IMG/VR virus record: IMGVR_UViG_3300029705_000029
Strand: one strand, 5' to 3'
Source: a virus
Taxonomy: Duplodnaviria; Heunggongvirae; Uroviricota; Caudoviricetes
Length of the DNA: 64,000 nucleotides
The notes beneath the pieces were generated by a model. It had not been told where the DNA came from and did not search any database. It saw only the letters and a program-made list of their open reading frames with translations. The number at the start of each line of letters is the position of its first letter. The first letter of the stretch is position 1. The translations under genes and the position numbers were made by a program. Positions 1,121 through 55,470 of this stretch are shown piece by piece.

Positions 1121-1936
1121 TTAAGGCTCTTCGGCACATGGGTTTGTGCCAGCATAATGGAAATCATTGAATCCACTTAGCAAATTCCAGTTATCAATTC
1201 GATCCCAGAAAAGCATTCCAGGCTCTCCCATATTCCAATTGTTCTTCGCAATCTTATGGAATAGCTCCTTGGCCTTTACAACCTTCTTGATCTCTTCTCC
1301 AGTCTCTTGGCGCACAAATGACAGCTCATAGTCTTCGTCGGCAATTACAGCTTTCATGAAATCGTCTGTAATACGAATTGAAATGTTAGCCTTTGTAACA
1401 CGGTTTAGGTCGTTTTTGATGTCAATGAATTCTTCAATATCTGGATGGTCGCAAGATAGTGAAATCATAAGTGCGCCTCTGCGACCATTTTGTGAGATGA
1501 GCCCAGTAACCAAAGAATAAAGGTCCATAAATGATACCGCACCAGAAGATTCTTTTGCGGCGTTTCTAACCTTGGCACCATTTGGAGCAAGCTTAGATAG
1601 GTCTACGCCAATGCCACCGCCATAGCTGTATGTTCTTGCAATCTTCTTTGCACATTCAAAAATTGATTCGAGATTGTCCTCTGGAGGCTCACATACATAG
1701 CAATTTGACATGCTAACCTTCCTACCAGAATGTTCTAGTCCTCTATTAGATAGGATTCTTCCACCAAATAGAAACTTTTTATCAATAATAAGATCTCTTA
1801 CAGCATTGTTGCCACCAGAAATACGATCTAGCCACTGGTCAAATGTTTCGTCTTCATAACGATACTTTCTTTCCCAAATATCAATGCCAAGCTGATTATC
1901 AGCACCTAACCACTCTTGAACGTTCAATATAATCAC
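1121..1936 (-). CDS. Ribonucleotide reductase catalytic subunit, 5' exon (class II-like; ends at the active-site TNPCAE)
   Basis: The 271-aa product has an RNR N-terminal region and terminates immediately after TNPCAEEP, so the gene is truncated by the downstream intron and HEG. Its start overlaps the upstream gene (ATGA). Confidence 0.6.
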   Translation of the reverse strand: MIILNVQEWLGADNQLGIDIWERKYRYEDETFDQWLDRISGGNNAVRDLIIDKKFLFGGRILSNRGLEHSGRKVSMSNCYVCEPPEDNLESIFECAKKIARTYSYGGGIGVDLSKLAPNGAKVRNAAKESSGAVSFMDLYSLVTGLISQNGRRGALMISLSCDHPDIEEFIDIKNDLNRVTKANISIRITDDFMKAVIADEDYELSFVRQETGEEIKKVVKAKELFHKIAKNNWNMGEPGMLFWDRIDNWNLLSGFNDFHYAGTNPCAEEP

Positions 1937-10672: not shown

Positions 10673-12625
10673 TCACTCATTTTTGTCAATCATGCTCAAA
10701 AATTCTTCCTCTGTGATAATTGGCACTCCAAGCTCAACCGCTTTCTTGTACTTAGAAGATCCACTCTGTTCATTTGTGATAAGGTAGTCAGTCTTCTTGG
10801 ATACAGAGCCAACTGCTTTTGCGCCAAGAGATGCAATCTTTTCATTGATAGAATCTCTGGTGAAGTGGTTAAGTTTGCCTGTAACACAAATAGATTTACC
10901 GTTAAATTGGCTGTTACTTACACTTTTCTTTTCAGGAACAATAAAGTGCATCTCGTCAGCAAGCCTGAGAATATCCGAATAATTATATTCTAAATAATTA
11001 TCAAGAGTTGTAGCCATTGTTTCACCAAAATCGTCCAACGTGTCCCATGGGAATCCATGAGAATATGCATCCGCCCAATCGTGAAAACTCCCATTAAACT
11101 TCTGCGAGATGGTTTTAGCGGCAGACAAACCAATGTTGGGGATACCAAGTGCTGCAATGAAGTTCTCAAGCTTCACATTGCGTGATTTCTCTATGCTAGA
11201 CAATAGTTTTTCAACCGATTTAGCTCCTAAACCATCTAGCTTGATAAGTTGGTTACGGTAGTTTGAAAGCTTATAAATGTCCAAAAAACTATTGATATAA
11301 TTAAGAGAAATCAACCTTTCAAGCAAAGCCTCTGCAAGACCTTCGATGTTCATGCACTTGCGACTTACAAAATGTACAAACTGCGCAATCTTCTTGGCAG
11401 CACAATCTGGATTTACACACATAAGTACTTGGCTATTGTCGGTATTTTTAACAACCGTCTCTGACCCGCAACAAGGACATTTCTTTGGAGCTTCAAGAGT
11501 GTTACTTCTGGTAAGATTATCATCAATCTTAGGAATAACCATATTGCTGCGATAAACAGTAATAGTATCACCAATACCAAGTTCAAGCTGCTTAATGATA
11601 GACAAATTATGTAGTGTTGCTCTTGTGGTTAAAGCTCCATCGAGATCAATTTCAGAAAACACGGCAGTCGGCGCAATTAAACCCGTTCTAGTCGGATTCC
11701 ACTCCACATCAAGTAACGTAGTTTCATATGTACTATCCGCCCACTTAAGAGCCATTCTACAGCCCTCATGATGTGATGTTGCAGTGAGAGATTTAGAATA
11801 TTCCTTCATACACATCTCGAAAATTAGACCGTCGACAGGATAACTATAAGATTCTGGCGTCATTTCTGTTACGCAAGCTTCAACTTCCCCAAGACACCTA
11901 TCCACAGTTTCAAAACCAAGATAATCTAGATATCCAAGTTCATCCCACTTAGAATCATATTTGCCGTTTTCGTCATATAGATCAGATACACACTCAAATA
12001 CTATATAGGAAAGGTTTCTAACCTTAGTGATATTTGTATCAAGATTACGAAGACTGCCTGCAGCCAAATTACGAGGATGGGAATATTTATCCTCAAGAGT
12101 TTCATTAATCTTGTTGAAATTATCCCAAGAAACAACACATTCTCCACGAAGTTCAAGATCCATATCGTATGGAATATTCATGGGAAGGTTGCTAATCATC
12201 TTGGCCTGTTCGGTGACATCTTCTCCAATTGTACCCGTTCCCCTCGTAACAGCCTGTACAAACTTACCATTACTGTACCGAACGACGAGTGTCAATCCAT
12301 CAAGTTTGTAACTACAATAAAACGCATTATTACCAATGAACTTTTTGATTTCATTGATATCCTTAGTTTTTGCTGCGGATAGCATTGGTTTAGTGTGTTC
12401 TACTTTAGTAAAGCCATCTAGCACAGCGCCTTGCACTTTACGCGTAGGGCTGTTGGCAAGCCAGAAATTTGCTTCGTTTTCCAGCTGTTCAAGCTCGTTA
12501 TACTTTTTATCGTAAGCCGCATCACTAATAGTAGGATTGTCCATGACATAATATTCATGACAATACCGCAGAAGCTCTACAGTTAGTTCTTTGATTCTCT
12601 CAATTCTATTCATCGCGCACTTCAC
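10673..12625 (-). CDS. ligA: NAD-dependent DNA ligase
   Basis: KLDG adenylation motif (YKLDGLTLVVRY), Cys4 zinc finger (CPCCGSE...CVNPDC), helix-hairpin-helix region and a C-terminal BRCT domain. Confidence 0.85.
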   Translation of the reverse strand: MKCAMNRIERIKELTVELLRYCHEYYVMDNPTISDAAYDKKYNELEQLENEANFWLANSPTRKVQGAVLDGFTKVEHTKPMLSAAKTKDINEIKKFIGNNAFYCSYKLDGLTLVVRYSNGKFVQAVTRGTGTIGEDVTEQAKMISNLPMNIPYDMDLELRGECVVSWDNFNKINETLEDKYSHPRNLAAGSLRNLDTNITKVRNLSYIVFECVSDLYDENGKYDSKWDELGYLDYLGFETVDRCLGEVEACVTEMTPESYSYPVDGLIFEMCMKEYSKSLTATSHHEGCRMALKWADSTYETTLLDVEWNPTRTGLIAPTAVFSEIDLDGALTTRATLHNLSIIKQLELGIGDTITVYRSNMVIPKIDDNLTRSNTLEAPKKCPCCGSETVVKNTDNSQVLMCVNPDCAAKKIAQFVHFVSRKCMNIEGLAEALLERLISLNYINSFLDIYKLSNYRNQLIKLDGLGAKSVEKLLSSIEKSRNVKLENFIAALGIPNIGLSAAKTISQKFNGSFHDWADAYSHGFPWDTLDDFGETMATTLDNYLEYNYSDILRLADEMHFIVPEKKSVSNSQFNGKSICVTGKLNHFTRDSINEKIASLGAKAVGSVSKKTDYLITNEQSGSSKYKKAVELGVPIITEEEFLSMIDKNE

Positions 12626-16720: not shown

Positions 16721-17065
16721 TCATCTACACTTTGCGCGAAAAGTATAATTAGATCCGTTAGTAGACGTATATAATCTACAAACAAACCCATCATCATGCC
16801 CATTGTTGGTGTAATCATATGGCTCGTTTGCTTTAATATTCTCTATATCAGATGTAGGTATGAGAACTGTATTAACACACCAATCATCGTTACGACAATT
16901 ATTGCACATTGTCCAGAGTCGATCTGGACACGCGGACTTACAAGTAACTTTAATAATGGTCCAGTGCTCTGGTTTTAATTCACAATTTTCTTCGTGTATA
17001 TAGCAGCGAGTCTCATCATTTTCAAACTGCTTGCCACAGTATTCGCAAATATAAAGCCTTTTCAT
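16721..17065 (-). CDS. C2H2-like zinc-finger protein; paralogue of 18250..18516
   Basis: N-terminal YICEYCGKQFENDETRCYIHEENC. Confidence 0.45.
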   Translation of the reverse strand: MKRLYICEYCGKQFENDETRCYIHEENCELKPEHWTIIKVTCKSACPDRLWTMCNNCRNDDWCVNTVLIPTSDIENIKANEPYDYTNNGHDDGFVCRLYTSTNGSNYTFRAKCR

Positions 17066-17075
17066 TCAAATCTCC

Positions 17076-17366
17076 TTATTTCAACCTTTCATCATGTTCT
17101 TCGTACCACGCTAATTTTTGAACACATTCTGCTTTCCAGAGCACAGCATCTAAGCAATGTTCGCACGGCTTAGTGATTTCTTCTTGTAAGCCGCCAGACA
17201 TTTGAATTTCATATTGACGAGCCATCAGCTCCTTGCTCACTTCACAAGTGTTACAAGGGCATATAGCTGACAATTTTACATCTTGCCACTTGTTATGAGG
17301 GCGAAATGTTGCATCAAATGAACTCAAAGTGTCGAATACGTTTCTTTGGTATGTTTTCCAGTCCAT
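17076..17366 (-). CDS. Hypothetical Cys-containing protein
   Basis: ORF track. Confidence 0.45.
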   Translation of the reverse strand: MDWKTYQRNVFDTLSSFDATFRPHNKWQDVKLSAICPCNTCEVSKELMARQYEIQMSGGLQEEITKPCEHCLDAVLWKAECVQKLAWYEEHDERLK

Positions 17367-17468
17367 GTTTTATGTCTCCCCATTGCCCATATTGTGCAGT
17401 ATCTAATGTGACCAGGCGTCCAATCAGGATGTTTGGCACGAATGCGTGAGTAAATGAAAGAATATCTG

Positions 17469-17810
17469 TTAAATTTTTTCTTCATGCGCATATCTCCACA
17501 GCATTACGTTGCTTGCGCTAATGTCAGTAGGCATTGAAGTAAATACGATTTCCATCTCTTCTCCGCTAAAATCACAGACAATAATTCTATCTCCAATTTC
17601 TGGCATCTTATCTTCTGGATCAAACCACTCATGCTCTTCGTACTCAACATATTCGCGTTCAACTTTATAGCCAAGCATCTCAATTAGTCTAATCCACTCA
17701 TGATCTGGGACATTGTGTCCTTCGAAATGAAAATCTTCTCCGCAATTAACATCTAGAACTACCCAGTCGCCAATACCGTCAATAGTATATTTAATATAAG
17801 GTTTACTCAC
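17469..17810 (-). CDS. Hypothetical protein
   Basis: ORF track. Confidence 0.45.
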   Translation of the reverse strand: MSKPYIKYTIDGIGDWVVLDVNCGEDFHFEGHNVPDHEWIRLIEMLGYKVEREYVEYEEHEWFDPEDKMPEIGDRIIVCDFSGEEMEIVFTSMPTDISASNVMLWRYAHEEKI

Positions 17811-18235
17811 TTCAACATATCTCCAACAATTTTACTTGCAATGCTCATATCCATCTTGCCCTTGAAGTTTGCGCTCAGATACTTCATAATTTTACCCTTA
17901 TTCATTTCTACACCAGAGTTGCGAATAATTTCAGCAATCTCATCCTCATTAGTGATCAGACTGGGCGCAAACTCACAAATAATCTCCATCTGCTTCTTGT
18001 AATCTTCAAGTAGATCATGACGAGATTCTGGACAAGTGTCAATCATTTCCTGTGCGGTCTTCTTGGCTTTTAGGAGAACTTCATTAACAAGCGCTTCTGG
18101 AATATTATCTCTGCATCCATTGTCAATGGCTGCGTTCTTAATCTGTGCAATTGTAGTGGAGATAACGTTTTTGCGGAACTTGTCTCCTGATTTCATAGCG
18201 GCAATCATTGCCTGCTGTAGTGCTTCTAGTGTCAT
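17807..18235 (-). CDS. GatB/YqeY-domain protein
   Basis: MTLEALQQAMIAAMKSGDKFRK... N-terminus and overall pattern match the YqeY family. Confidence 0.6.
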   Translation of the reverse strand: MTLEALQQAMIAAMKSGDKFRKNVISTTIAQIKNAAIDNGCRDNIPEALVNEVLLKAKKTAQEMIDTCPESRHDLLEDYKKQMEIICEFAPSLITNEDEIAEIIRNSGVEMNKGKIMKYLSANFKGKMDMSIASKIVGDMLK

Positions 18236-18249
18236 AATTTATTCCTCCA

Positions 18250-18516
18250 TTAAAATATATAATCTTCCACGTCATATGGTCTAAAATCTCTGTAGTTGTT
18301 GTGCTTATTACAACTGTACTCATACATACATGTCAGTTCACAGCCGTATACATAGAACGAATTTACACAGCATCGACACATATCCCTGTCTGTCATATTC
18401 GCAATATAGTACTTGATCTTTTCTACATCTTCAAGGTGCAAAATCTCATGATAAGCACAACATGTTTTATCTGAGAATTGCTTGCCACAGTGCTCACATT
18501 CATAGATTGTTTTCAT
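18250..18516 (-). CDS. C2H2-like zinc-finger protein; paralogue of 16721..17065
   Basis: YECEHCGKQFSDKTCCAYHEILH. Confidence 0.45.
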   Translation of the reverse strand: MKTIYECEHCGKQFSDKTCCAYHEILHLEDVEKIKYYIANMTDRDMCRCCVNSFYVYGCELTCMYEYSCNKHNNYRDFRPYDVEDYIF

Positions 18517-18865
18517 GATGTTCTTTCACCTGCTTAAAATATTCTGGCCACGAAAACCATTTATCTTTCATTAAGTGCCCAATCTTAGTGATTTTAGCAC
18601 CCCAGCCTTCACTTTCAACTCTGCAATACTGACCAACAAGATCTTCCCAGCATTCTACTTCAAAGGTCTTCATTAGTTCAATAATCGCACCATAGCCATC
18701 AGAGGAATAATACTCGCCTGGTTTGCAGAACCAATGGTCTAAGCAATAGCCGCCTGGTGTGCAGCCCCAACCATCACCTTCGATTGTAATGTATGCAGTG
18801 AGACAGCCGTGATCTTCGCCAAGTCTAGTGTGAGTGATTTTGGCGTTTAGAATTTCTGTAGACAT
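18500..18865 (-). CDS. Hypothetical protein
   Basis: ORF track. Confidence 0.45.
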   Translation of the reverse strand: MSTEILNAKITHTRLGEDHGCLTAYITIEGDGWGCTPGGYCLDHWFCKPGEYYSSDGYGAIIELMKTFEVECWEDLVGQYCRVESEGWGAKITKIGHLMKDKWFSWPEYFKQVKEHHENNL

Positions 18866-18876
18866 ATTAAAGCTCC

Positions 18877-20097
18877 TTAATTCCCAATCTCAATCAAATA
18901 CTTAATAGTCATCTGATCATTTCTATAAAACACAATTTCGTCATTTATCAGCATCCCCTTGTCCGCTTTTGCATGCAGACAATTACATTTAGGATTCTTG
19001 TTCTGCAGTACATTGTAGTTCAAATGATAACAACTACTATCATGCTGGTATACAACATAAGGAGTTCCATAGGCCACTTCAAACAACGCCATGTAAGCGA
19101 CATTGTTTCCACCATGTGCCCAATAAGAACCAGACAGCGAGGTGTATCCAATGGACTTTTGACACTTAGGGGCAAAGTAGATTCCATCTGAAAACATGGA
19201 GCCTGTGTATACAGCATTACTAGGACGAATCATAAGGCCAGTTTTAATAATGGAAAACCAATTCTCACTGCGGCTACCATGAAACAGCAATCTGGTGTCC
19301 TGAATATCATTCTCAGCAATAAACTTATCAAAGCGTTCCTGAGTCTTAAGGTTCTTAACTCTCCAAGCCCTTCTAAACTTGCCAGCGGATTCATTCATAA
19401 GCTTCTTAATGAGCGCAATATCATCCGCAGTAGTTTCTTCCATTTCAAGTCCAAGTTCTTCAAGAATAGTTTGCTGTTTCTTTTCTACATGCTCAACAGG
19501 TTCATGCTCAGGTTTCACATAAATCTGACCGCGCATAACGTCAAGAAGATCCTGTTCTTTGGAAATAATCTGTGCAAAGTCTTCTACTTTATCAGCTAGA
19601 TAATCTCTGACATTGCCCATCTTTCTCGGAATTACCGTAAACAGTTTGAGCAGCTTGTCATTGAACGCTTCGATTGTAGCATCGCCATTTGCCAGCTCAT
19701 CAATGATCTTCTGAGCCGCATCAACCATATCCTGAGTAACAGCAGATGCTTGAACGGTATAGTTCTTCTGAATGGTTTCGCGAGCTAGACCCTGAAGCTT
19801 TTCTACGATAGCTTTGATTGCTGCGTTTTCAATGTCTCTGTAATGGCTTTCAGGATTGGCAGAAGAGATTTTCTCTACCAAATCCTGCTTTAGGTCTGTT
19901 ACATCTTGATATCCCTTATTAAGCTTACTGGAAATTTGCGTGTTCCATTTAGACATGGGATAATATCTTGTGGTTTTAGTTGCATCAACTCGTCCGTACT
20001 CGACTCTAAACTGGTCACCTTCTGGAAAAAGATTATAATACTTATTGTTATTCGCAGTTGTAACCATAATAAGATAAGTGGGTCTAATCTCTGCCAT
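18877..20097 (-). CDS. Poly/mono-ADP-ribose polymerase-like protein (WGR domain plus PARP catalytic domain)
   Basis: The N-terminus has a WGR-like FRVEYGRVDATKT segment. The C-terminus reads LLFHGSRSENWFSIIKTGL...YTGSMFSDGIYFA...YMALFEVAYG, matching the PARP H-G-S / Y / E catalytic signature. Confidence 0.7.
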   Translation of the reverse strand: MAEIRPTYLIMVTTANNNKYYNLFPEGDQFRVEYGRVDATKTTRYYPMSKWNTQISSKLNKGYQDVTDLKQDLVEKISSANPESHYRDIENAAIKAIVEKLQGLARETIQKNYTVQASAVTQDMVDAAQKIIDELANGDATIEAFNDKLLKLFTVIPRKMGNVRDYLADKVEDFAQIISKEQDLLDVMRGQIYVKPEHEPVEHVEKKQQTILEELGLEMEETTADDIALIKKLMNESAGKFRRAWRVKNLKTQERFDKFIAENDIQDTRLLFHGSRSENWFSIIKTGLMIRPSNAVYTGSMFSDGIYFAPKCQKSIGYTSLSGSYWAHGGNNVAYMALFEVAYGTPYVVYQHDSSCYHLNYNVLQNKNPKCNCLHAKADKGMLINDEIVFYRNDQMTIKYLIEIGN

Positions 20098-20112
20098 AAC
20101 TCAAACCTCCAA

Positions 20113-20538
20113 TTAGAGTTCGCAAATTACAATCTCAACGTCCATGTCTTCAAATACTTCGCAAATGATTTCATAAACCTTGCTCCAATCTAAACGATCC
20201 AAGCCAGAAGCAATGCGTGGCATGGCCAGCTTGGCTACATTCAGAAACTCCATAAATTCTTTCATCATTTCCAGTGCGGCTCTTACGGTTTCATAAGTAG
20301 GCTTGTGCCAATATTTCTGCTTAGTAACAAGATTAAAAACGTTGTCTACTGGTAGCGCATCGCCACCACAATACTCATAATCAGGATAATTTCTGAACAG
20401 CTTAAATCGCATATTATAAACACTATCAAAAGTCTTTGCGATACCAGCTCCGAGTGCAAAGTCGGCAGAGATACAATGTGCTAGATAATAACCCTGGGGC
20501 ATAGTAAATAGGTCACGCTTTTCAGTAGTAATAGTCAT
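20113..20538 (-). CDS. Macrodomain ADP-ribosyl hydrolase of the TARG1/OARD1/DarG-like clade
   Basis: YLAHCISADFALGAGIAKTF...HKPTYETV...AMPRIASGLDRLDWSKVYEIICEVF matches the TARG1 motifs (AHCISxD..MGAGIA; MPRIGCGLDRLxW). Confidence 0.75.
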   Translation of the reverse strand: MTITTEKRDLFTMPQGYYLAHCISADFALGAGIAKTFDSVYNMRFKLFRNYPDYEYCGGDALPVDNVFNLVTKQKYWHKPTYETVRAALEMMKEFMEFLNVAKLAMPRIASGLDRLDWSKVYEIICEVFEDMDVEIVICEL

Positions 20539-20560
20539 AAATCATTTCTCCTTTATAATT

Positions 20561-20580
20561 CATTAATTTTGTATTGTTAC
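20561..20580 (-). promoter_or_regulatory. Conserved motif copy, upstream of the DHH gene
   Basis: Motif followed by TATAAAGGAG. Confidence 0.5.
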
Positions 20581-22181
20581 CAAACGTCTTCAAATTTAAA
20601 ATCATTCAAGATTAACTGTCTGTAATAAGTTCTTCCAAAATATCCACTATCAAGCTGTCCCACTCCATAAAATTCTTTATCTTCTAGGTCCCACATATCA
20701 TCCCATCCATTAAAATTCCACTTAATAAATGTGACATTTGGGGTTGTAATTTTGAGGTGTTTGCCGCCCGACATATTGCCAACTTCGTAATCAGATACCT
20801 CTCCAATCATAACCGTAATTGGAGCAAATCCAGAGCCAGAAATTTTATTAATATCCTTAATCTGTTTAATTAGGATATCTGTAACTTGCTCTGCGTCAAG
20901 CTGAATATCAATATCACAAGACTGAACAAATTCGACGTCTCTCAGTACATCTTCTATTTTGTTTTTAAATTCTTCAAATCTATTAATTGGTATAAATGCG
21001 CCTGCGGCCAGCTCATGGCCCACACAAGATCCAATTCCAGTATCATTTACTATCTTGGTAAAATTATCTATACCAATTGCTCTCATAGACCCAGCGTAAC
21101 TATTGCCTACAGTTCTGAGCACAAACAATGGACGCTGATATTTTTCTAGCAATTTGTTACCCATCAAACCTGCGACTTCTGCATCAACATCGACAAAGAA
21201 GTACATACACTTTTGGTCTAGCTGTGCGTCTCCTTGTCTAATTAGCTCTTCCATCTGATCCGCCACAATATCGTTTTGCTTTTCTTTGCATTTCTTTAGA
21301 TCACGAATAAGAGCATTTACTTCTTTTGCATCGTCAGATAGAAACATCCTCATGGCCTTTTTGTTTTCACTCATTCTACAGGCAGCGTTCGCAAGAGGGG
21401 CCAGACCAAAACTGACAGCTTTGGAATCAAACCCATAAGAACCATTAATTTTTGAAATAGCAAGGTTTCTTTGGTGGTTGAAACCCTGATAACAAATATA
21501 TCTGTTTTCTGCCGACTGTTCGGAAACATCGCACATATCAGCAATAATACCTGCCGCTGCTAGATCCCAGAATTCTTCTGAATAGTCGTTCCAAGTTACT
21601 TCATCAATGTACTGACAAAACTTGAATACGACACCTGCACCACTTAGTGCTGGATTTGGGTAGTTGTTAGCAGAACTTATCAGACAAAATGGTAAATTTG
21701 CATCAATCAGTCGCTGCTCAATTAGGTGATGGTCACACACAATCAGCTTTGCACCTGTGTTTAGGATATTTTTATATACTTCTGGATCGTTGTTAAGAGA
21801 GTCAACAATAATTAGTGTGGTATTTTTGTCCAACATTTCAATCGGAAAATCTTCCGCACCATGCTTTTTACCTTCATTAATATATGTATCAATATTGTCA
21901 GTAAAATTTCGCAAGTATCTCGTCATAATTGTACCAGATGATAGACCATCCTGATCAACGTCGAAGAATACCACAAAACGATTGTTATCTTCGATTGTTT
22001 TTAATACAATATTACATCCCTCTTCAAGCCCTTGCATTTCTTCAAAAGGGACCATTGAATCTTCTGGTGGAGTCATAAAGGTTTTGTAATTTTTAATACC
22101 TCTGCTTTCCATAAGAGCTTCAATGATTTCAAGATGATCCATGTCTCTGCCATCTATTTTAATGTTCCAATTTTTCTTCAA
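20577..22181 (-). CDS. DHH/DHHA1 phosphoesterase (RecJ-like exonuclease or nano-RNase family)
   Basis: DHH motifs FFDVDQDG, IVCDHH and DHHA1 GHELAAGA. Confidence 0.7.
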   Translation of the reverse strand: MKKNWNIKIDGRDMDHLEIIEALMESRGIKNYKTFMTPPEDSMVPFEEMQGLEEGCNIVLKTIEDNNRFVVFFDVDQDGLSSGTIMTRYLRNFTDNIDTYINEGKKHGAEDFPIEMLDKNTTLIIVDSLNNDPEVYKNILNTGAKLIVCDHHLIEQRLIDANLPFCLISSANNYPNPALSGAGVVFKFCQYIDEVTWNDYSEEFWDLAAAGIIADMCDVSEQSAENRYICYQGFNHQRNLAISKINGSYGFDSKAVSFGLAPLANAACRMSENKKAMRMFLSDDAKEVNALIRDLKKCKEKQNDIVADQMEELIRQGDAQLDQKCMYFFVDVDAEVAGLMGNKLLEKYQRPLFVLRTVGNSYAGSMRAIGIDNFTKIVNDTGIGSCVGHELAAGAFIPINRFEEFKNKIEDVLRDVEFVQSCDIDIQLDAEQVTDILIKQIKDINKISGSGFAPITVMIGEVSDYEVGNMSGGKHLKITTPNVTFIKWNFNGWDDMWDLEDKEFYGVGQLDSGYFGRTYYRQLILNDFKFEDVW

Positions 22182-22927
22182 ATCATGTCATCCTCCAGTA
22201 CTACACAATTAATTTTTCCACTATGAGCGCAACAAGCATCAAGCGCAATAAAACCATCACCATAAAATGGGTCAAACTTTGCATCTGCTCCGAACTCACT
22301 GCGGCCTTCAAGTTTTGCCCAGCCAGTGCTGCAATGCCAATGGCCAAAAACAAGTGTTTTATTAGGAAGCAAACCGCATTCTGCAAGCTCAAACGGATCA
22401 CCCCATCTTGCATCATCCCACTGTGTTGCATGAGCTTCACGCCAATTTTCCATCTTTGTGTAGTTTTTGCCCCGAAGATAATACGGAGGTAGAATACTAT
22501 CACATTCAAGCGGGACAAAGCTGTGAACGAAGATGTAATTCTTAGTTTCTAAATAATTTACCATGCCGTCAACAAACTTTAAAACCTTTGGATAGATTGC
22601 TATACAAGCTTCTTCAAATGTATTGGCGCTTGGGGCAAGATCAATAATTGTTTGGGCGGTACCATTGCTCCAATCGTGCCCCTGTGGATATTCGCGTGCA
22701 AGACAATCCATTATGAGATCTTCGTGATTTCCGCGTATTAGAATTTTGCGCTCCAGAGACGCAAGATAGTCTATAACTTTATGTGGCTGTCTGCCCCTAT
22801 CGGTATAATCTCCAAGCCCTACCAGAAAATGATTTTTATTATTTTGATCAAATCCCGCTTCATCAAGCGCTTTGCACATTTCATCATAGAACCCATGCAC
22901 GTCACTGATGCAAAACAACTTTGCCAT
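22178..22927 (-). CDS. Calcineurin-like metallophosphoesterase (lambda-PPase/ApaH-like)
   Basis: Motifs DVHG, GDYTDRG and GNHE. Confidence 0.75.
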   Translation of the reverse strand: MAKLFCISDVHGFYDEMCKALDEAGFDQNNKNHFLVGLGDYTDRGRQPHKVIDYLASLERKILIRGNHEDLIMDCLAREYPQGHDWSNGTAQTIIDLAPSANTFEEACIAIYPKVLKFVDGMVNYLETKNYIFVHSFVPLECDSILPPYYLRGKNYTKMENWREAHATQWDDARWGDPFELAECGLLPNKTLVFGHWHCSTGWAKLEGRSEFGADAKFDPFYGDGFIALDACCAHSGKINCVVLEDDMI

Positions 22928-22960
22928 CTATATCTCCTCCCATCTATAGCTATTATACAC

Positions 22961-22980
22961 CATTAATTTTGTATTGTCTA
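22961..22980 (-). promoter_or_regulatory. Conserved motif copy, class 1 (TAGACA-N17-TATAAT)
   Basis: Upstream of the metallophosphatase gene. Confidence 0.55.
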
Positions 22981-23034
22981 TTGACGCATTAAACAAATAT
23001 GGGCCGCAGTTTTACTACGACCCATACAATGTTA

Positions 23035-23232
23035 TCACTCCTGTCTAATGTGATAATAAAATTCTCCAGAGTTAGGATTCTCAACAGTCACAACACTACC
23101 GCCAAGCAGCATCATGTCTAGAGCGGCCAAAACGCGAACAGTGGGAAGATCAAGATCATACGAGATTTCTCTGGGCGTCTTATCTGCGTTGCCCTTAAGA
23201 TAGCTATAAATTTTATTAATAATATTTTCCAT
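23035..23232 (-). CDS. Small putative winged-helix DNA-binding protein
   Basis: 65 aa; pattern PREISYDLDLPTVRVLAALDMM. Confidence 0.4.
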   Translation of the reverse strand: MENIINKIYSYLKGNADKTPREISYDLDLPTVRVLAALDMMLLGGSVVTVENPNSGEFYYHIRQE

Positions 23233-23242
23233 TTTTCATTCT

Positions 23243-23260
23243 CCTTAATTTTGTATTGTT
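23243..23260 (-). promoter_or_regulatory. Conserved motif copy
   Basis: Upstream of 23035..23232. Confidence 0.45.
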
Positions 23261-23312
23261 GTTTGCAAACGTATTCATTATACTGTATTGCGGCGTGTAT
23301 GTCAAGTTAAGT

Positions 23313-24194
23313 TTAGTGTGCGGCTTTATCTGCTTCGTGGAGCAAATCAATGTACTGCTTAAGATATGTAGGTAGATTGTTGTAATACTTACTATTAAAG
23401 AATGGTTCCATATGGTTACAAATTAACCAAGCTACAAACGGAGTAACATTTCTAATTCCATAAGACATCCATGCTCCATAGTTGTTATGAAAGTAAAAAT
23501 GCGCTATATCACAAGGATTACCCTTCGCATCCACAAACGCTTTCACTGCAGGCTTGCCAATGTCATGTAGCCATGCGGCCCATTGTAGTTCAAAATCATT
23601 GGTGGTCTTTAGCATATATTGGTAAGCTGCTTGGCAATGATCATAAATGTTCAGAGTATGATGAGGATTGTCATGTGGAATCTTCATTTCATCTACCAAT
23701 ATCATTTCATAAATACCATCATCATATTTAACAGATTTTACAACTTCAATGTGGTCAATACCTTCGTCGTACCATGGAGCCTGAAAACGCTTGAGCATCC
23801 TGCCAATTACTTCTGGACCAACAGTACGCTCTCTTTCGGCATCTCTTCTAATACAATCTTCAACAGGTGCCCAGATAATATGTGCCTCAATTTTTACAAA
23901 CTTTGGACATGCTGAAATGATATAAGCGCGATCTTTGCGAGTGATGTTCGTTGCGTCATACAGCACATTCTGACCATTGTTTAGTGCTTCGATTGCTCTG
24001 GACTGCATTAGAGAGAACACTTCATGGTTATCACCCTGAATCGCTTCATTCCCCCACAGTTCTTTTCTGATAGAATCAGAAGAAAGATGAATTACATTGT
24101 CGTGAAACTTTGCGTATTCTTTGGCATAGTAGGTTTTACCTGAACCAGGGATTCCTACGAGTAGAATTAGGGTTGGTCTGTTCATTTTAATCAC
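23313..24194 (-). CDS. Polynucleotide kinase (P-loop) fused to an HD-domain phosphohydrolase
   Basis: N-terminal GIPGSGKTYYA, as in the T4 Pnk kinase domain. C-terminal HD motifs (HLNIY..H...WLHDIGK). Confidence 0.6.
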   Translation of the reverse strand: MIKMNRPTLILLVGIPGSGKTYYAKEYAKFHDNVIHLSSDSIRKELWGNEAIQGDNHEVFSLMQSRAIEALNNGQNVLYDATNITRKDRAYIISACPKFVKIEAHIIWAPVEDCIRRDAERERTVGPEVIGRMLKRFQAPWYDEGIDHIEVVKSVKYDDGIYEMILVDEMKIPHDNPHHTLNIYDHCQAAYQYMLKTTNDFELQWAAWLHDIGKPAVKAFVDAKGNPCDIAHFYFHNNYGAWMSYGIRNVTPFVAWLICNHMEPFFNSKYYNNLPTYLKQYIDLLHEADKAAH

Positions 24195-24206
24195 CTACTT
24201 GTTCTA

Positions 24207-24228
24207 TTAAAAATTGTGTTGTTTCTAA
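24207..24228 (-). promoter_or_regulatory. Degenerate motif copy (ATTAAAAATTGTGTTGTT)
   Basis: Upstream of the Pnk gene. Confidence 0.3.
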
Positions 24229-24326
24229 TTGTAAGTCATCAATACATATTTTAGAAAAATATGTATACGGGATTCGTATTAATGGAACATTAGCATATTT
24301 TATTCCTCATTAAAACATTTTGTTAT

Positions 24327-25772
24327 TTATTCTTCCTGTGCTTCTTCTAGGTCTGGTTCAAGTGCTTCGTCCTTGATAATGCCCTCAAGAACCTTGAAAG
24401 AGAAGTTCTTATGCTTGTAGACCGCAATATTGGGACGATTTACGATACGAGCCACTACACCTTCGCGAATATGAGTCTTACCAATTGGGTCGGGGCCATC
24501 AAAGTATTCTTCAACCTTACGCAGGACATATTCGCCAGGGTTAACATGGATGCGCCTAGTTGCAACCCAGTTTTCAGCGAAATCAACAGCAGAATATTCT
24601 TTAATATATTCAGGAATAATGAATCGTTCAAATACGGGCACAGCATTTACGCCCATCTGTTCACAACGCATGCGCATCTGATCAGGAGACATCTCTACGA
24701 CATCACCGTCTTCGTTAGTCATAGTCATGCGGTAAACATAAACTTCGCACTTAGGAGGAAATACCTCAGTTGGAGATCCATTAGCAACATAAAAGCCATC
24801 TGGCTCAACAGAGTGAGGTTCCCAGCCACCAAGAGGTTCGCAACCATAAGAGAATACTGTTTCTTCACCGTACTGCTTAGAGAATTCTTTGTCCTTAATC
24901 TTGGAATTCTTTACAGATGCCATGATAGGGGTATCCTCGTTTACGAAGCCTACGATTTCGTAGTAGACCGTTTCGTTTTTACGTAGCTTACCTTCAAACT
25001 TCTTTGCCATCTCTAGTCTGAAATTGTTATCATCATAATATCCACCATCATGCTTGTCATCAAGAACAACACGACGAGTACCAGTTACATAACCATATTC
25101 CACATATTCCTTGCCAGGGCGACGACGAATCTTATCCCATAGAGTCTGCGGCTTACGATGATGCAGCGGCAGATAACCAGTACGACCGCTAGTTCCATGC
25201 ATCTTGAGCGTTAGCTCTACAATGTCTCCAGCCTTAAACTCACCCAGATTGTATGCCAGCTGTGCAGTATCAACATGCTCATAGAAAGTAGGTGCAAAAT
25301 TAGCCTTTGCTCTCTTGCCGCCACCACCATGATAAGTATGAGATGCATGATTGCGCCTTGGAATATACTTCTTGCAGATCTCCTTACCATTTAGCATAGA
25401 AATTGTATCGCCTTCCTTGAGATCAGAAATCTTACAGAAGTCAGCTAGGCAAGTTAGCGGAAGGAATAGTCCATCAGACTTTTCACCGCGAAGCTTTAGT
25501 GCCTTAATGTTGCGCTTTTCAGGGTCTAGATAACCACCACATAGATTGCCATTTTCATCCTTGCGACGCACAAGATCATTCGCCTTGCAAAATTCCTCAG
25601 ATAGCTGACCATCTACAGGGAAGTAAACGCCAAGCTGTCCTTCCATATAATCCATGGATACGATTACAGAGTTTCCAAAACATTCGCCAATCTGTAGGCG
25701 ATCTGCGTTAGAATGCTTGCGCACATTCTTTAGAATAGTAACAAAACCAGTGTATGCCATAATTCTTGCCAC
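24327..25772 (-). CDS. RNA ligase (Rnl2-like KxHGT nucleotidyltransferase) with an N-terminal tRNA-binding OB domain
   Basis: The N-terminus (KNVRKHSNADRLQIGECFG) resembles the Myf/CsaA tRNA-binding domain. Motif I is TLKMHGTSGR (KxHGT). Confidence 0.6.
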   Translation of the reverse strand: MARIMAYTGFVTILKNVRKHSNADRLQIGECFGNSVIVSMDYMEGQLGVYFPVDGQLSEEFCKANDLVRRKDENGNLCGGYLDPEKRNIKALKLRGEKSDGLFLPLTCLADFCKISDLKEGDTISMLNGKEICKKYIPRRNHASHTYHGGGGKRAKANFAPTFYEHVDTAQLAYNLGEFKAGDIVELTLKMHGTSGRTGYLPLHHRKPQTLWDKIRRRPGKEYVEYGYVTGTRRVVLDDKHDGGYYDDNNFRLEMAKKFEGKLRKNETVYYEIVGFVNEDTPIMASVKNSKIKDKEFSKQYGEETVFSYGCEPLGGWEPHSVEPDGFYVANGSPTEVFPPKCEVYVYRMTMTNEDGDVVEMSPDQMRMRCEQMGVNAVPVFERFIIPEYIKEYSAVDFAENWVATRRIHVNPGEYVLRKVEEYFDGPDPIGKTHIREGVVARIVNRPNIAVYKHKNFSFKVLEGIIKDEALEPDLEEAQEE

Positions 25773-32774: not shown

Positions 32775-32910
32775 TTGTCCCTCTGGGACTCGAACCCAGA
32801 CTATGCCTTGCTAGGGCCTACGGCTTATTGGTGACAGATTGTAGATTTGCACTACAATATCCTAAATGAATCTGCCAAGGCCGTGGCTCTCACCATTGAG
32901 CTAAGGGACA
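32775..32910 (-). tRNA. Atypical ~136-nt tRNA-like gene with a ~50-nt insertion in the anticodon arm (type II-like long variable arm)
   Basis: Canonical 7-bp acceptor (TGTCCCT/AGGGACA), U8, A14, D-arm GCTC/GAGC and T-arm CTGGG-TTCGAGT-CCCAG. The anticodon-stem halves ACGGC and GCCGT are separated by about 55 nt that fold into an extended hairpin (ATTGTAG-TGCAAAT-CTACAAT). Confidence 0.5.
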
Positions 32911-34232: not shown

Positions 34233-34979
34233 TTAGTACTCGAACTCGATAACAGTTACAGCGTTGGAAACACTGAGAGCTGCATCAACTTCAGTTTCAA
34301 ACTCATTAATCTCGTCCATGAGATTTTCCATAAGGTTAGTGACGCCAAGCGGGTCAATTAGGTCATAAGTATTGTTCGTAATGTAATCCTTGCGAAGAGC
34401 CTTCATTGCATCACTATCGATAGCCATCTTAGAATCCTTAGGCTGAGCCTGGATTACAGACAGCACATACTGTTCAGCTCGCTTTTCAATGGCTTCGCCA
34501 CTATTACGATCAAGCTCAACATATGCTGCGCGATAGTTGTCTACAATGCGCTGACGAAGAATCTTCTTGTATTCCATGCCGTGATTCTTCTCTTCGATAG
34601 CCTCAGCGACCGTCATTTCCTTTTCGCCAACTACAACCTTGGTGGTTGCATTGGAAATCACAACAGCTCGCTTCATTGCGTCACGACGCGCAATTAGAGA
34701 CTGAACCTTCTGGTAAGCACTCTTGATGTTTTCCTTGAACTCGGCCACGGTAACTCCGTTAACCTTTTCTGCTGAGTGCTTAACTGCCATCGCGTAAGGA
34801 TGTGCGTTAATTGCCTTTAGGATGCGATCATCCATAGTCTTGAGTTCTGCAAGTGCCTTGTGAACCGTCATCTTTTCCTGAGTCATTTTCTTGTACCCCC
34901 TAATAAGCTTTGAATCATTAATTTTGTACTGTTTCCCTTGAACTGGAATTAGTATATCACACATTCCATATTCTGTCAA
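34233..34979 (-). CDS. Hypothetical protein
   Basis: 248-aa ORF; sigma-70-like promoter TTGACA-N17-TATACT at 34950-34980 plus the conserved motif upstream. Confidence 0.5.
   Translation of the reverse strand: MTEYGMCDILIPVQGKQYKINDSKLIRGYKKMTQEKMTVHKALAELKTMDDRILKAINAHPYAMAVKHSAEKVNGVTVAEFKENIKSAYQKVQSLIARRDAMKRAVVISNATTKVVVGEKEMTVAEAIEEKNHGMEYKKILRQRIVDNYRAAYVELDRNSGEAIEKRAEQYVLSVIQAQPKDSKMAIDSDAMKALRKDYITNNTYDLIDPLGVTNLMENLMDEINEFETEVDAALSVSNAVTVIEFEY
34917..34937 (-). promoter_or_regulatory. Conserved motif copy (class 2)
   Basis: Upstream TTGACA-N17-TATACT at about 34950-34980. Confidence 0.5.
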
Positions 34980-35405: not shown

Positions 35406-35821
35406 ATAAAATGTGTATACCAGTTTTGATTGGGACGAAGACTGGAAACTTCTTTTCTCTCGACTCGCTCCGTAGAGTCGGCTTAACCGACGTACTATTC
35501 TGTCTCGCATACACTTTCTGAGACTTGTGAAGAGAGCATTCACAATAGCGACCTAAGCCTTTTTGCCGTTAGAAAGCATTATCTTGTCGCCTGGATAGGT
35601 GGACTTTTGGAACGTGCACCACCATACACTCCGTCCTATATCTAACTGGACATTTCGCTTTTCTTTCAGATAAAAATCTTAGCTGCTTTGTGGTTTTGCG
35701 ATAACCCATAGTGTTCTCCATCAAGTACCGCATGGCAGCACGGGATTGACTTCACAGAACGAGCCTAATCTCAAGTATTAGGCAAAACACGTGTATGATA
35801 TTCTAAGTGTCATACCCGCTG

Positions 35822-39996: not shown

Positions 39997-40659
39997 TTAA
40001 TCATCGTCGTCATCCAACAAATCAGAAATATCTCCCAGTCCTTCATGCTTAATTTCTGTTCTTTGCATGTTGTTATAGTTAATACGAGGAGTTGGCGTTT
40101 TAATTTCTGCCTGAAACGCATCTTGTTTTGCTTTATAAGCTAAAAATTCTGGTATTTTTCCTACAATAATAGCAAGATCATAAACAAGTCTTGTGTCATC
40201 ATTTCTATGGCCATTATGATTCATTTTCTTTTTATTATTAATTTTGTTTAGAGTTACTTGTCCCCATTGCCATGCTCCCAACAGCACCTCCATGGAAACA
40301 GGCTTACATCTTCTGCTTTGGTAGATTCCTCGTTCAAGGTCTGCAAGTCTTTGCCAGAATGAACATGGTACTTTTGTAATATTGTAATGATTTAGCAACC
40401 ATTCATTTAAGTTGTCCCGAGCAAATGAATGCTTAATTTTTTCTTTTGCTTCTGCTTTGAGGTTTTGTATATTGTAAAGGGCGTCTCGCCACATTTCTGG
40501 TTTTCCACGCTTTGAACATGCTTTCTTAGTAGCCATTTCTTCGAAACATGCAATATGATAATACTTGTCTTTAAAAGATATCACTCCAGTGATATTGTTT
40601 ATATTAACTTCTATTGTATTTTTACAATAAGCACACTTATATTCCTGTTTATCTACCAT
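39997..40659 (-). CDS. Hypothetical protein with N-terminal Cys cluster and poly-Asp C-terminal tail
   Basis: CAYCKN...HIAC; ends in DLLDDDDD. Confidence 0.45.
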   Translation of the reverse strand: MVDKQEYKCAYCKNTIEVNINNITGVISFKDKYYHIACFEEMATKKACSKRGKPEMWRDALYNIQNLKAEAKEKIKHSFARDNLNEWLLNHYNITKVPCSFWQRLADLERGIYQSRRCKPVSMEVLLGAWQWGQVTLNKINNKKKMNHNGHRNDDTRLVYDLAIIVGKIPEFLAYKAKQDAFQAEIKTPTPRINYNNMQRTEIKHEGLGDISDLLDDDDD

Positions 40660-54937: not shown

Positions 54938-55098
54938 AAATTGAATCAACTGCCTTGCTATCTACTGCTATACTGCATAGATTACTCATAATACTGGTGT
55001 GTTCCTTTACCTGTTTCATGTTTGACTGCGCATGCCAGATTTAAGGCCATGATGGCAGGATGATAACCCTGCGATCTGGCCTGTGATCTGGGTTAATG
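54938..55098. repeat. Structured repeat unit B1 (box ...ATTACTCATAATACTGGTGTGTTCCTTTACCTGTTTCATGTTTGA plus a hairpin closed by GACTGC/GCAGTC)
   Basis: Hairpin core GGATGATAACCCTGCGATCTGG. Confidence 0.5.
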
Positions 55099-55268: not shown

Positions 55269-55470
55269 ACTTGCCTTCTATTGAATCTAGTTGTCTTGTA
55301 ATTCACTGTTGCACTACATCATTACTCATAGCCATTGTGCGTTTCTTTAACTGTCTCATATTGGGGAATTATTTCAGCGACCTGGCATGGGAGCTGGAGC
55401 AATTTGAAACTTGCGTGCGCCTTCAAAGTGATAGCGACTAGGCGCAGCCAGTTTCAATGCGTAATAATTC
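55269..55470. repeat. Structured repeat unit B3 (box ...ATTACTCATAGCCATTGTGCGTTTCTTTAACTGTCTCATATTGGGG plus a ~104-nt hairpin closed by GGAATTATT/AATAATTCC)
   Basis: Hairpin core contains GTGATAGCGACTAGGCGCAGCC. Confidence 0.5.

Follow-up and report, generated by a model that had tools for sequence, protein, structure and literature searches.

The two genes under study lie side by side in a stretch of 64,000 nucleotides (hereafter, the window) from an uncultured phage of ~170 kb. One encodes a 406-aa PARP and the other a 141-aa macrodomain protein (hereafter, the macro), and both are on the minus strand, exactly where the original prediction had placed them (Table 1). The macro gene, which had been described as immediately downstream of the PARP gene, is on the coding strand immediately upstream of it, with a 15-nt gap in between. 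The window contains one PARP and one macro, and no second copy of either was found within it.

Table 1. Coordinates of the genes, predicted domains and putative transcriptional signals in the window.
Feature	Position	Strand	Basis or remark
NAD-dependent DNA ligase LigA	10673..12625	-	Pfam DNA_ligase_aden 1e-42; 6.2 kb downstream of PARP
YqeY-like protein	17807-18235	-	Downstream of PARP
88-aa Cys-rich protein	18250-18516	-	Downstream of PARP
121-aa phrog_30930 protein	18500-18865	-	Downstream of PARP
PARP gene, 406 aa (predicted WGR + helical regulatory + ART)	18877..20097	-	ORF, Pfam PARP, phrog_23333, profile alignment
ART catalytic domain, residues 242-404	18886..19374	-	Pfam stretch 242-404
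E387 codon	18937-18939	-	ART triad
Y307 codon	19177-19179	-	ART triad
H273 codon	19279-19281	-	ART triad
Helical regulatory (HD-like) region, about residues 85-240 (boundaries approximate)	19378..19845	-	Sequence alignments
Predicted WGR domain, about residues 1-70	19888..20097	-	Profile A2 matches; residue mapping from PARP2 alignment
Intergenic spacer macro/PARP, 15 nt, GGAGG ribosome-binding site	20098..20112	-	Sequence read directly
TARG1-type macrodomain gene, 141 aa	20113..20538	-	PDB TARG1, phrog_335, conserved dyad
Macro D114	20197-20199	-	Catalytic dyad
Macro K73	20320-20322	-	Catalytic dyad
Macro GAGIA loop, residues 30-34		-	
RecJ-like DHH exonuclease, same putative unit	20577-22181	-	Pfam DHH/DHHA1; TIGR00644 recJ 7.7e-78, below cut-off
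Metallophosphoesterase, same putative unit	22178-22927	-	Pfam Metallophos 3e-14
Putative unit boundary: terminator-like hairpin 23027-22997, then promoter-like site 22980-22952	22952..23027	-	Consensus scan
Polynucleotide kinase (AAA_33)+HD protein	23313-24194	-	Pfam and NCBIfam
RNA ligase	24327-25772	-	Pfam and NCBIfam

The 406-aa protein falls inside the PARP superfamily, the point on which the original prediction had been staked. Pfam PF00644 was matched at 77.5 bits (cut-off 26.7; E 1.2e-21) over residues 242-404, phrog_23333 was matched over the full length (E 1.6e-62), and a phmmer search of PDB recovered PARP1 and PARP2 at 6e-11. Moreover, a full-length profile of 21 sequences with identities down to 24% (profile A4) was colinear, in a single stretch, with residues 132-582 of human PARP2 (E 2.3e-38). 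The H273-Y307-E387 triad is invariant in A4 and in two further alignments, A1 and A3 (5 and 32 sequences, respectively), with E387 being the counterpart of PARP1 E988 in the phmmer alignment. The three motifs previously read as catalytic (HGS, GIYFA and ALFEV) are all present, as are those quoted for the macrodomain, yet 'ALFEV' is not the motif of the catalytic Glu, as E387 sits in 'NDEIVFY'.

A WGR-like N-terminus had also been proposed, and profile searches bear this out. The single 406-aa sequence gave no Pfam match for WGR; a profile built from the first 100 residues of 24 homologues (profile A2) matched the WGR domains of PARP3 (2eoc; 3.2e-6) and PARP2 (6f1k/6f5b; 2e-3) in PDB, as well as a Bacteroides fragilis entry deposited as an uncharacterized protein (2ra8; 3.3e-3). 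The WGR motif reads YGR (Y34-G35-R36) in the clade of the source phage, so that the position of PARP2 W151 is taken by another aromatic residue, Y34, which is not invariant in A4. N16, N18, K19, R36 and K58, which are invariant in A4, are identical to PARP2 N127, N129, K130, R153 and K183, respectively. As these PARP2 residues read the 5′-phosphorylated break and relay activation (PMC8190142), their conservation points, if indirectly, to activation of the phage PARP by DNA breaks.

Between the WGR and ART domains, query residues 125-250 were aligned by phmmer with the HD of PARP1, and profile positions 86-399 with HD+ART fragments of PARP2 (E 1e-32). The region gave no separate significant match, and no Pfam match to PARP_reg was found in the 406-aa protein. 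An AlphaFold model based on 32 close homologues was poor overall (pLDDT 47.6), with the parts of usable confidence being helical; it was excluded from the fold search, and the HD fold is predicted from sequence alignment alone. On these alignments, the protein is predicted to have the minimal domain set of PARP2/PARP3, namely a WGR domain, a helical regulatory domain and an ART domain, and its H-Y-E NAD+ site is intact.

Over 4000 metagenomic homologues of the PARP were found, with many relatives located on contigs of ~155-178 kb. A near-identity DNA search of the phage collection gave no match to the source phage, the relatives of which come from metagenomes only. Bacterial homologues were confined to 10 loci, the best of them (34-36% identity) in Treponema MAGs; these were considered uninformative, and inference of a bacterial origin or a host from them was dropped.

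The 141-aa macro was matched over its full length by human TARG1/OARD1 in the phmmer search of PDB (E 3.7e-23) and by DarG macrodomains at only 1e-3, with no other recognised macro-domain chain at E <= 1. BLASTP gave 41% identity with human TARG1 over 140 aa, phrog_335 was matched at 2.7e-23 and Pfam Macro was sub-threshold (18 bits vs 22). K73 and D114 correspond, respectively, to K84 and D125 of human TARG1, the residues defined as its Lys84/Asp125 catalytic dyad (PMC8120803); both are invariant in 32 relatives, and the expectation that the catalytic Lys/Asp pair is kept is thus borne out. With a mediocre model of the macro (pLDDT 65.9) that served only as a consistency check, Foldseek placed TARG1 structures first, at ranks 1-8, with DarG next after them. 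The macro is classified from its sequence as TARG1-type with a Lys/Asp dyad, and as a predicted ADP-ribosyl hydrolase. Both genes are under purifying selection, with dN/dS of about 0.04-0.13 across the two (about 0.04-0.10 for the PARP gene against its relatives).

The initial assignment of the macro to a TARG1/OARD1/DarG clade stands for TARG1 but not for DarG. The macro scored 36.9 bits against the cut-off of 250 of the DarG equivalog model NF048014 (NCBIfam), covering only positions 71-146 of 338, and the PADLOC match to DarG (1.6e-12) is confined to the macro part. No PADLOC model of DarT was matched by the neighbours of the macro (the PARP and the RecJ-like gene). A DarTG system was thus rejected, given the score below the DarG cut-off and the lack of both a C-terminal DarT-binding domain and a DarT neighbour.

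A terminator-like hairpin followed by a promoter-like site (11/12 matches) lies upstream of the metallophosphoesterase gene, where the boundary of a transcription unit is inferred, and the consensus scan found no terminator-like site from there to position 16500. The short gap between macro and PARP genes, the ribosome-binding sites and the lack of an internal terminator-like site are putative signals of an operon. Genes for end-processing enzymes surround the pair, namely the RecJ-like exonuclease, the phosphoesterase, the polynucleotide kinase-HD protein (PNK-HD), the RNA ligase and LigA; of these, the metallophosphoesterase and the RecJ-like exonuclease are kept as neighbours only inside the ~80% clade. 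The genes of the 121-aa, 88-aa and YqeY-like proteins were rejected as components of the system, since their linkage stops at the ~80% clade, save for YqeY in Klebsiella phage FBKp34. No PARG was found in Pfam, PHROG and NCBIfam scans of the 13 surrounding ORFs (16721-25772). Elsewhere in the window, a 220-aa ORF (39997-40659) scored 21.8 bits with Pfam zf-PARP (cut-off 39.3), with no PDB or PADLOC support; a PARP-type zinc finger acting in trans was, at this sub-threshold score, set aside as a weak lead.

Of 80 related viral contigs (IMG/VR), 47 carry a macro gene directly upstream of the PARP gene and co-oriented with it, in 30 cases within 20 nt. The pairing spans PARP identities of 45-84% and four PARP clusters at the 70% level while the other neighbours reshuffle, and two loci carry another macro subtype in that upstream slot. 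The gene cluster that most often co-occurs with the PARP is the macro family, followed by DNA ligase, with ligase-macro-PARP cassettes included. PARP and macro are linked by evolution, and the adjacency in the 47 contigs strengthens the reading of the two as writer and eraser that had been put forward from the window. That such a pair is unusual had been overstated: phage PARPs and viral TARG1-like macros, both featured in surveys from 2014-2022 and annotated in phages in GenBank, are each already on record. Our search of the literature found no description of the conserved pairing of a phage PARP with a TARG1-type macro.

No macro was found within 6 kb of the PARP in the PARP clades at <=44% identity, Cellulophaga phage phi4:1, XacN1 and LR756500; the eraser is therefore not obligatory. 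Beside such macro-less PARPs, Pfam searches of 9 neighbouring proteins revealed no alternative eraser, and hhalign comparison of neighbour families with the macro profile revealed no hidden macro among the 30 listed of all those scored (probability <=1.1%). The adjacent macro of sister clades has lost either the Asp alone (type B) or the Lys and the GxG loop as well (type C), and these degenerate macros, as judged from the missing residues, do not fit a simple hydrolase role there.

In common with human PARP2 and PARP3, the phage PARP has a WGR domain, a predicted helical regulatory domain and an ART domain in the same order, and the H-Y-E triad. Unlike them, it has no disordered basic N-terminus, its WGR domain, at about 70 aa, is shorter and carries Tyr where the motif has Trp, no residue could be assigned as the equivalent of PARP2 Y201, and identity is about 25% or less outside the ART core. 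It shares the phrog_23333 family with Cellulophaga phage phi4:1 gp031, Klebsiella phage FBKp34 gp111 and Xanthomonas phage XacN1 ORF414, which are annotated as PARP (gp111 with WGR, regulatory and catalytic domains), are already in published surveys and match at 26-33% identity over 96-98% of the query with full-length architecture. A DNA ligase gene is found one gene downstream of the PARP in phi4:1, and the order PARP/hypothetical/YqeY is common to FBKp34 and the source phage. Unlike in the source phage, a TARG1-type macro is directly upstream of the PARP in none of the three: in FBKp34 the macro lies 2.4 kb upstream and is of a different subtype, while phi4:1 and XacN1, as well as LR756500, have none within 5-6 kb.

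The PARPs of Herpetosiphon aurantiacus and Clostridioides difficile CD160 are each reversed by their own PAR glycohydrolase (PMC8120803), and the phage pair resembles these bacterial systems in that a PARP with WGR, predicted regulatory and catalytic domains is paired with a predicted macro-fold hydrolase. It differs in its phage context and in its partner, a 141-aa TARG1-type macro rather than a PARG, and the nearest bacterial PARPs are only 22-36% identical to that of the phage. TARG1 cuts the protein- or phosphate-proximal bond, while PARG cuts ribose-ribose bonds. The phage macro is of the same size as human TARG1/OARD1 and FmTARG1 of Fusobacterium mortiferum, likewise carries no extra domains and retains the K84/D125 dyad and GAGIA loop of human TARG1; FmTARG1 belongs to a host without PARP and an operon with an immunity-51 gene, whereas the phage macro adjoins a PARP. 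The macro subfamily is related to that of DarG, yet a PARP stands beside the phage macro where DarTG has DarT.

On balance, we consider it probable that PARP and macro are transcribed together and form a writer/eraser module for ADP-ribose that responds to DNA breaks and lies in the region of DNA replication and repair genes. In such a module, the WGR domain would bind a 5′-phosphorylated nick or break in phage or host DNA that is damaged or being replicated, this binding would lift the autoinhibition exerted by the helical domain, and the PARP would then use NAD+ to ADP-ribosylate itself, nearby proteins and/or the DNA 5′-phosphate. The macro, translated first from the same transcript, would hydrolyse the Asp/Glu-ester or phosphate-linked ADP-ribose and reset the site, clearing the way for end processing and ligation. 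Both reactions expected of the macro have precedents, as TARG1 reverses the PARP3 modification of DNA 5′-phosphates and Glu/Asp-linked protein ADP-ribose (PMC8385414), and a bacterial TARG1 strips mono- and poly-ADP-ribose from PARP1 (PMC6397177). Against this reading, the proximity of the ligase may just reflect the clustering of replication genes, and RNA rather than DNA may be suggested by the neighbouring RNA ligase and PNK. A further proposal, which we regard as unlikely, is that the phage physiologically controls its DNA 5′-phosphate ends by reversible ADP-ribosylation: the WGR-PARP would cap nicks or ends in DNA that is being replicated or has been injected, which would keep RecJ-type exonucleases out or prevent ligation from occurring too early, the TARG1-type macro would uncap them for the linked DNA ligase, and the degenerate macros of the sister clades would be readers or regulators rather than erasers.

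Several other roles for the pair can be weighed against the break-responsive module. In the style of T4 Alt/ModA/ModB, the PARP may ADP-ribosylate host proteins such as RNA polymerase and translation factors for host takeover, with the macro limiting collateral modification of phage proteins. Such a role has been proposed for phage PARPs in surveys of jumbo phages (PMC7824862) and of viral NAD+-ADPr (PMC9503650), and proteins are readily modified by H-Y-E enzymes; yet a constitutive modifier has no need of a WGR + HD architecture with invariant break-contact residues, and the PARP is repeatedly linked to DNA ligase and located among replication and repair genes, not beside the head or packaging genes that about 44% of phage ARTs have been reported to adjoin (PMC9503650). 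We consider host takeover unlikely as well. Action on RNA is somewhat less likely still: the pair would work on RNA 5′-phosphates or by-products of RNA repair, in concert with the neighbouring RNA ligase and PNK-HD, which mend tRNAs cut by host anticodon nucleases. It would fit the flanking RNA ligase, PNK-HD and phosphoesterase genes, the RNA ligase directly upstream of macro-PARP in some relatives (L011, L015), the array of at least 11 tRNA genes in the source phage, and the capping of 5′-phosphate RNA by several PARPs and TRPT1, which is reversed by TARG1 (PMC8385414). However, this capping is documented for PARP10, PARP11, PARP15 and TRPT1 and not for the WGR-type PARP1-3 (PMC8385414), and the RNA-repair neighbours are kept only within the ~80% clade, whereas the linkage to DNA ligase recurs in more distant clades.

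Were the macro a counter-defence eraser that strips ADP-ribose placed by host defences (by DarT on DNA, or by other ARTs) or degrades ADP-ribose-derived signals, its adjacency to the PARP would be incidental or secondary. Other phages (LP65, Fnu1, Bacillus phage G and Aeromonas phages) do have TARG1-type macros but no PARP, the phage macro has the fold and the catalytic Lys of the DarG macro, and phage macros have been proposed to act mostly on soluble ADPr derivatives. An incidental adjacency is nevertheless hard to square with a macro that, in 47 loci and across four PARP clusters (70% level), stays close upstream of the PARP and co-oriented with it while other neighbours change, with its non-orthologous replacement by another subtype at the same position, or with a window that harbours just one macro and one PARP, and we hold this role to be improbable. 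More doubtful still is a toxin-antitoxin-like or superinfection-exclusion pair, in which a PARP toxic by NAD+ depletion or lethal modification would be held in check by the macro as antitoxin. The eraser-first order and tight coupling do resemble a toxin-antitoxin operon, and phage-encoded ART-Macro and Sirtuin-Macro toxin-antitoxin pairs have been described; but the PARP has a predicted autoinhibitory architecture of its own, the adjacent macro is absent in many PARP phages and has lost catalytic residues in some others, the pair belongs to a long series of replication genes, all in one orientation, in lytic-type genomes of ~170 kb, and the phage's own LigA requires NAD+. The original prediction had chosen none of its three functional options; the evidence favours a DNA-break-linked role over a counter-defence or toxin-antitoxin pair.

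No biological role is known for any PARP of phages or bacteria, and what DNA-end ADP-ribosylation by PARP1-3 means physiologically is still open (PMC8385414). The module described here is small (406 aa and 141 aa, with no zinc fingers or BRCT domain) and abundant in metagenomes, and gene order fixes its partners, namely a TARG1-type eraser and, often, a DNA ligase; these features make it a tractable minimal system in which to ask how a WGR-only PARP is activated, what it modifies and how a TARG1-type enzyme resets it. At least for the clade of the source phage, the pairing runs against the general proposal that soluble ADP-ribose derivatives are the main substrates of phage macrodomains. If the reversible capping of DNA ends were true, it would provide a natural role for DNA-end ADP-ribosylation, which has so far been mainly an in-vitro activity of PARP1-3.

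Every sizeable ORF of the window is on the minus strand, and the putative ADP-ribosylation writer and eraser of the original prediction coincide exactly with two of them, encoding 406 and 141 aa. For the 406-aa protein, a Pfam PARP catalytic domain was found at residues 242-404 (77.5 bits, E 1.2e-21; cut-off 26.7 bits) and PHROG 23333 matched at full length (E 1.6e-62), while phmmer against PDB retrieved PARP1 and PARP2 at 6e-11, in an alignment that begins at residue 125, within the putative helical regulatory domain. Pfam reported no WGR in the single sequence; a profile built from 24 diverse homologues (first 100 residues each), run against PDB, matched the PARP3 WGR domain (2eoc, 3.2e-6), PARP2 WGR-DNA structures (6f1k/6f5b, about 2e-3) and 2ra8, a Bacteroides fragilis chain deposited as uncharacterized protein, in agreement with the WGR-like N terminus originally proposed. 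Positions 7-399 of a full-length profile of 21 homologues formed a single continuous alignment with human PARP2 132-582 (E 2.3e-38), and PARP1 WGR-CAT constructs were matched at E about 1e-37. H273, Y307 and E387 are invariant across all PARP alignments. The proposed catalytic core stands except in one motif: ‘ALFEV' is a conserved structural motif without the catalytic Glu, which is E387 in ‘NDEIVFY', aligned to PARP1 E988. These profiles predict that the protein is a PARP made up of a WGR, a helical regulatory and an ART domain.

In PARP2, K130, W151, K183 and Y201 coordinate the 5′-phosphate, N127 and R153 bridge DNA and the regulatory domain, and N129 serves in the activation relay (PMC8190142). 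Via the full-length profile, PARP2 N127, N129, K130, W151, R153 and K183 correspond to N16, N18, K19, Y34, R36 and K58 of the phage protein, all invariant in that profile with the exception of Y34; no equivalent of Y201 was assignable in this alignment. The phage WGR thus appears to keep the predicted break-reading residues. In seven related IMG/VR loci (L014-L016, L027 and L048-L050) the match to the window protein extends well upstream of the start of the longest PARP ORF, and the N-terminal WGR part is seemingly missing, which could reflect frameshifts, assembly errors or genuine truncation.

The 141-aa protein scored below threshold for Pfam Macro. By phmmer against PDB, it matched human TARG1/OARD1 at full length (3.7e-23), with DarG macrodomains no better than about 1e-3; BLASTP against the human TARG1 sequence, consistent with the PDB alignment strings, gave 41% identity over 140 residues. 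In Foldseek, a mediocre AlphaFold model (pLDDT 65.9) had its best matches in TARG1 structures, with DarG ranked next. The catalytic dyad of TARG1, K84/D125 (PMC8120803), corresponds in the alignment to K73 and D114, both invariant in 32 relatives, so that the catalytic Lys and Asp are both kept. The PADLOC (1.6e-12) and NCBIfam (36.9 bits; cut-off 250 bits) DarG models matched in the macro part only, and with them neither a DarG C-terminal domain in the protein nor a DarT gene nearby was found; DarG identity was therefore rejected. Of the proposed TARG1/DarG assignment only the first half was retained, the protein being a predicted TARG1-type macrodomain.

On the coding strand the macro gene comes first, thus its placement ‘downstream' of PARP holds in plus-strand coordinates only. 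By consensus scan only, the order after a promoter-like site is metallophosphoesterase, RecJ-like exonuclease, macro, PARP, 121-aa gene, 88-aa gene and YqeY-like gene, with no terminator-like site from there down to 16500. The organisation of macro and PARP is operon-like. Other nearby genes encode PNK-HD (polynucleotide kinase plus HD), RNA ligase, dCMP deaminase, a Toprim protein, LigA, SF1 helicase, Pol III alpha and RNR.

Features of the window and of related loci (L, numbered IMG/VR loci with related PARP genes)
Feature	Coordinates	Strand	Basis or detail
PARP ORF	18877-20097	-	406 aa
Macro ORF	20113-20538	-	141 aa
Macro/PARP spacer		-	15 nt, with GGAGG ribosome-binding site; sequence read
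Terminator-like hairpin	23027-22997	-	consensus scan only
Promoter-like site (11/12), after hairpin	22980-22952	-	consensus scan only
Homing-endonuclease ORF and adjoining RNR fragment	123-962 and 1121-1936	-	phrog_314, 1.5e-24 (endonuclease)
136-nt tRNA match	32775-32910	-	Rfam 48.6 bits; no ARAGORN report
248-aa ORF, mid tRNA array	34233-34979	-	PHROG 1491 ‘tail fiber protein', 2.8e-53
‘drum RNA' RF02958, inside tRNA array	35651-35760	-	Rfam 68.6 bits (gathering score 43)
220-aa ORF	39997-40659	-	between DnaB-like helicase and AAA_24 gene
Two adjacent tyrosine-recombinase-like ORFs	44142-45110, 45131-46156	-	MrpR N-terminal domain; Phage_integrase 1.2e-35
Direct repeat, 42 nt	54981-55022 / 55321-55362		76% identity
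Reverse-transcriptase ORF	55527-56786	-	Pfam RVT_1 8e-21, phrog_1423
Type C macro, example	L026:5167-5886		239 aa
Second macro	L009:2420-2929, L014:6082-6555, L028:12823-13230, L054:12276-12749, L059:12278-12769		HQVNC...GxGIA motifs

The source element resembles a large tailed phage, with IMG/VR viral contigs as relatives, a tRNA array (at least 11 tRNA genes) and many PHROG matches. An insertion or intron within a tRNA gene may explain the 136-nt match. The 271-aa RNR large-subunit fragment matches no more than the initial part of the barrel domain, and a mobile element probably interrupts the RNR gene. The imperfect repeat lies just 3′ of the reverse-transcriptase ORF on the coding strand, with substitutions that on a quick look are not adenine-specific; the two could form a diversity-generating or other retroelement. 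The recombinase-like pair sits within an otherwise lytic-looking genome. The 220-aa ORF has CX2C-22-HX2C at its start, an acidic tail and a weak match to Pfam zf-PARP (E 3e-4, 21.8 bits; cut-off 39.3), and is a weak candidate for a nick-binding zinc finger; L044 has a 30% homologue 3 kb downstream of PARP.

An IMG/VR scan with the PARP alignment, with the macro profile run over all ORFs, yielded 80 loci (40-84% identity). A macro gene lies upstream of PARP on the same strand in 47 of them, with a gap of <=20 nt (30 loci), 21-130 nt (10) or one inserted gene (0.8-1.0 kb; 7); two contigs end without DNA upstream of PARP, and 31 loci have no macro. Most of the latter (26 of 31) form a consecutive block, L063-L088, whose PARPs are 40-46% identical to the window protein. 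Among the 30 neighbour families listed for macro-less loci, hhalign gave hidden macros beside PARP a probability of <=1.1%, and Pfam matched none of nine immediate neighbours. When PARPs were grouped at 70% identity, an adjacent macro was found in 4 of 15 groups. The pairing is conserved across related viral loci. The RecJ-like, phosphoesterase, PNK-HD, RNA ligase, 121-aa and YqeY genes are common to the ~80% clade only, and shift position even inside it.

Counted by gene cluster, PARP most often has the macro family as a neighbour (50 loci), followed by a cluster containing ATP-dependent DNA ligases (36 loci), with LigA accounting for 15 more; several loci carry a ligase-macro-PARP cassette, the L036 ligase being confirmed by Pfam PF01068 at 6e-10, and a full-length ligase (>=400 aa) is within 6 kb in 4 of the 15 groups. 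This link is suggestive only, as replication genes cluster anyway.

The macros next to PARP fall into four types: A (window clade and ~50% clade), with K and D both kept; B (L023, L024, L051), with K kept and D and the GxG loop lost; C (239 aa; the L026 sister clade, listed as L026-L031, L033, L052, L054-L057, L059, L061, L062), with an extra N-terminal region of ~95 aa and Lys, Asp and GxG loop lost; and D (L029, L053, and Klebsiella phage FBKp34 2.4 kb upstream), a different subtype in the same slot. Such replacement supports a functional link with PARP. The degenerate types show that not every clade is explained by hydrolysis alone; type C may serve in reading or regulation instead of hydrolysis. 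Several relatives carry, besides the adjacent macro, a second one of another subtype a few kb from PARP, unlike the window, which has one only.

Both genes are common and under maintaining selection. The PARP search returned 4253 homologues, the top 120 being >=81% identical and many on 155-178 kb contigs; a 171.5 kb JGI contig carries an identical protein and keeps the gene order of the window. Against relatives, dN/dS was 0.04-0.10 for PARP and 0.08-0.13 for macro, ratios that are approximate because dS is saturated.

In the proposed mechanism, binding of WGR to a 5′-phosphorylated break would release autoinhibition by the helical domain, ADP-ribose would then be moved onto PARP itself, nearby proteins or the DNA 5′-phosphate, and the TARG1-type macro would reverse the modification. 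There are precedents: PARP2 and PARP3 modify 5′-phosphates at nicks, and PARP3 DNA modification is undone by TARG1 (PMC8385414); bacterial TARG1 strips mono- and poly-ADP-ribose from PARP1 (PMC6397177). Host takeover, for which host-protein targets have been guessed for viral ARTs (Iyer et al. 2021, 2022), is unlikely here. More doubtful still is a macro acting as counter-defence eraser; phage macros have been proposed to act mostly on soluble ADPr derivatives (Iyer et al. 2021, 2022). An RNA-end module is equally doubtful, its RNA-repair neighbours being shared within the ~80% clade only. A toxin-antitoxin pair is the most improbable of these.

Components of the break-responsive pair proposed here are already catalogued: phage PARPs in Aeromonas phage Aeh1 and Cellulophaga phage phi4:1, and TARG1-like homologues in many viruses, few with all catalytic residues (Perina et al. 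2014); the PARP (‘PART') family among frequent viral ARTs (Iyer et al. 2021, 2022); and annotated PARPs in GenBank phages, one with WGR, regulatory and catalytic domains. A search of open-access text found neither a conserved phage gene pair of TARG1-type macro and PARP described, nor its ligase linkage, nor experiments with any phage PARP. PARGs reverse bacterial PARPs (PMC8120803); the window has a predicted PARP-plus-hydrolase system of this known kind whose partner is TARG1-type, within a phage replication/repair module. The original observation is confirmed and its identification supported, and macro-PARP offers a clean, testable minimal system.
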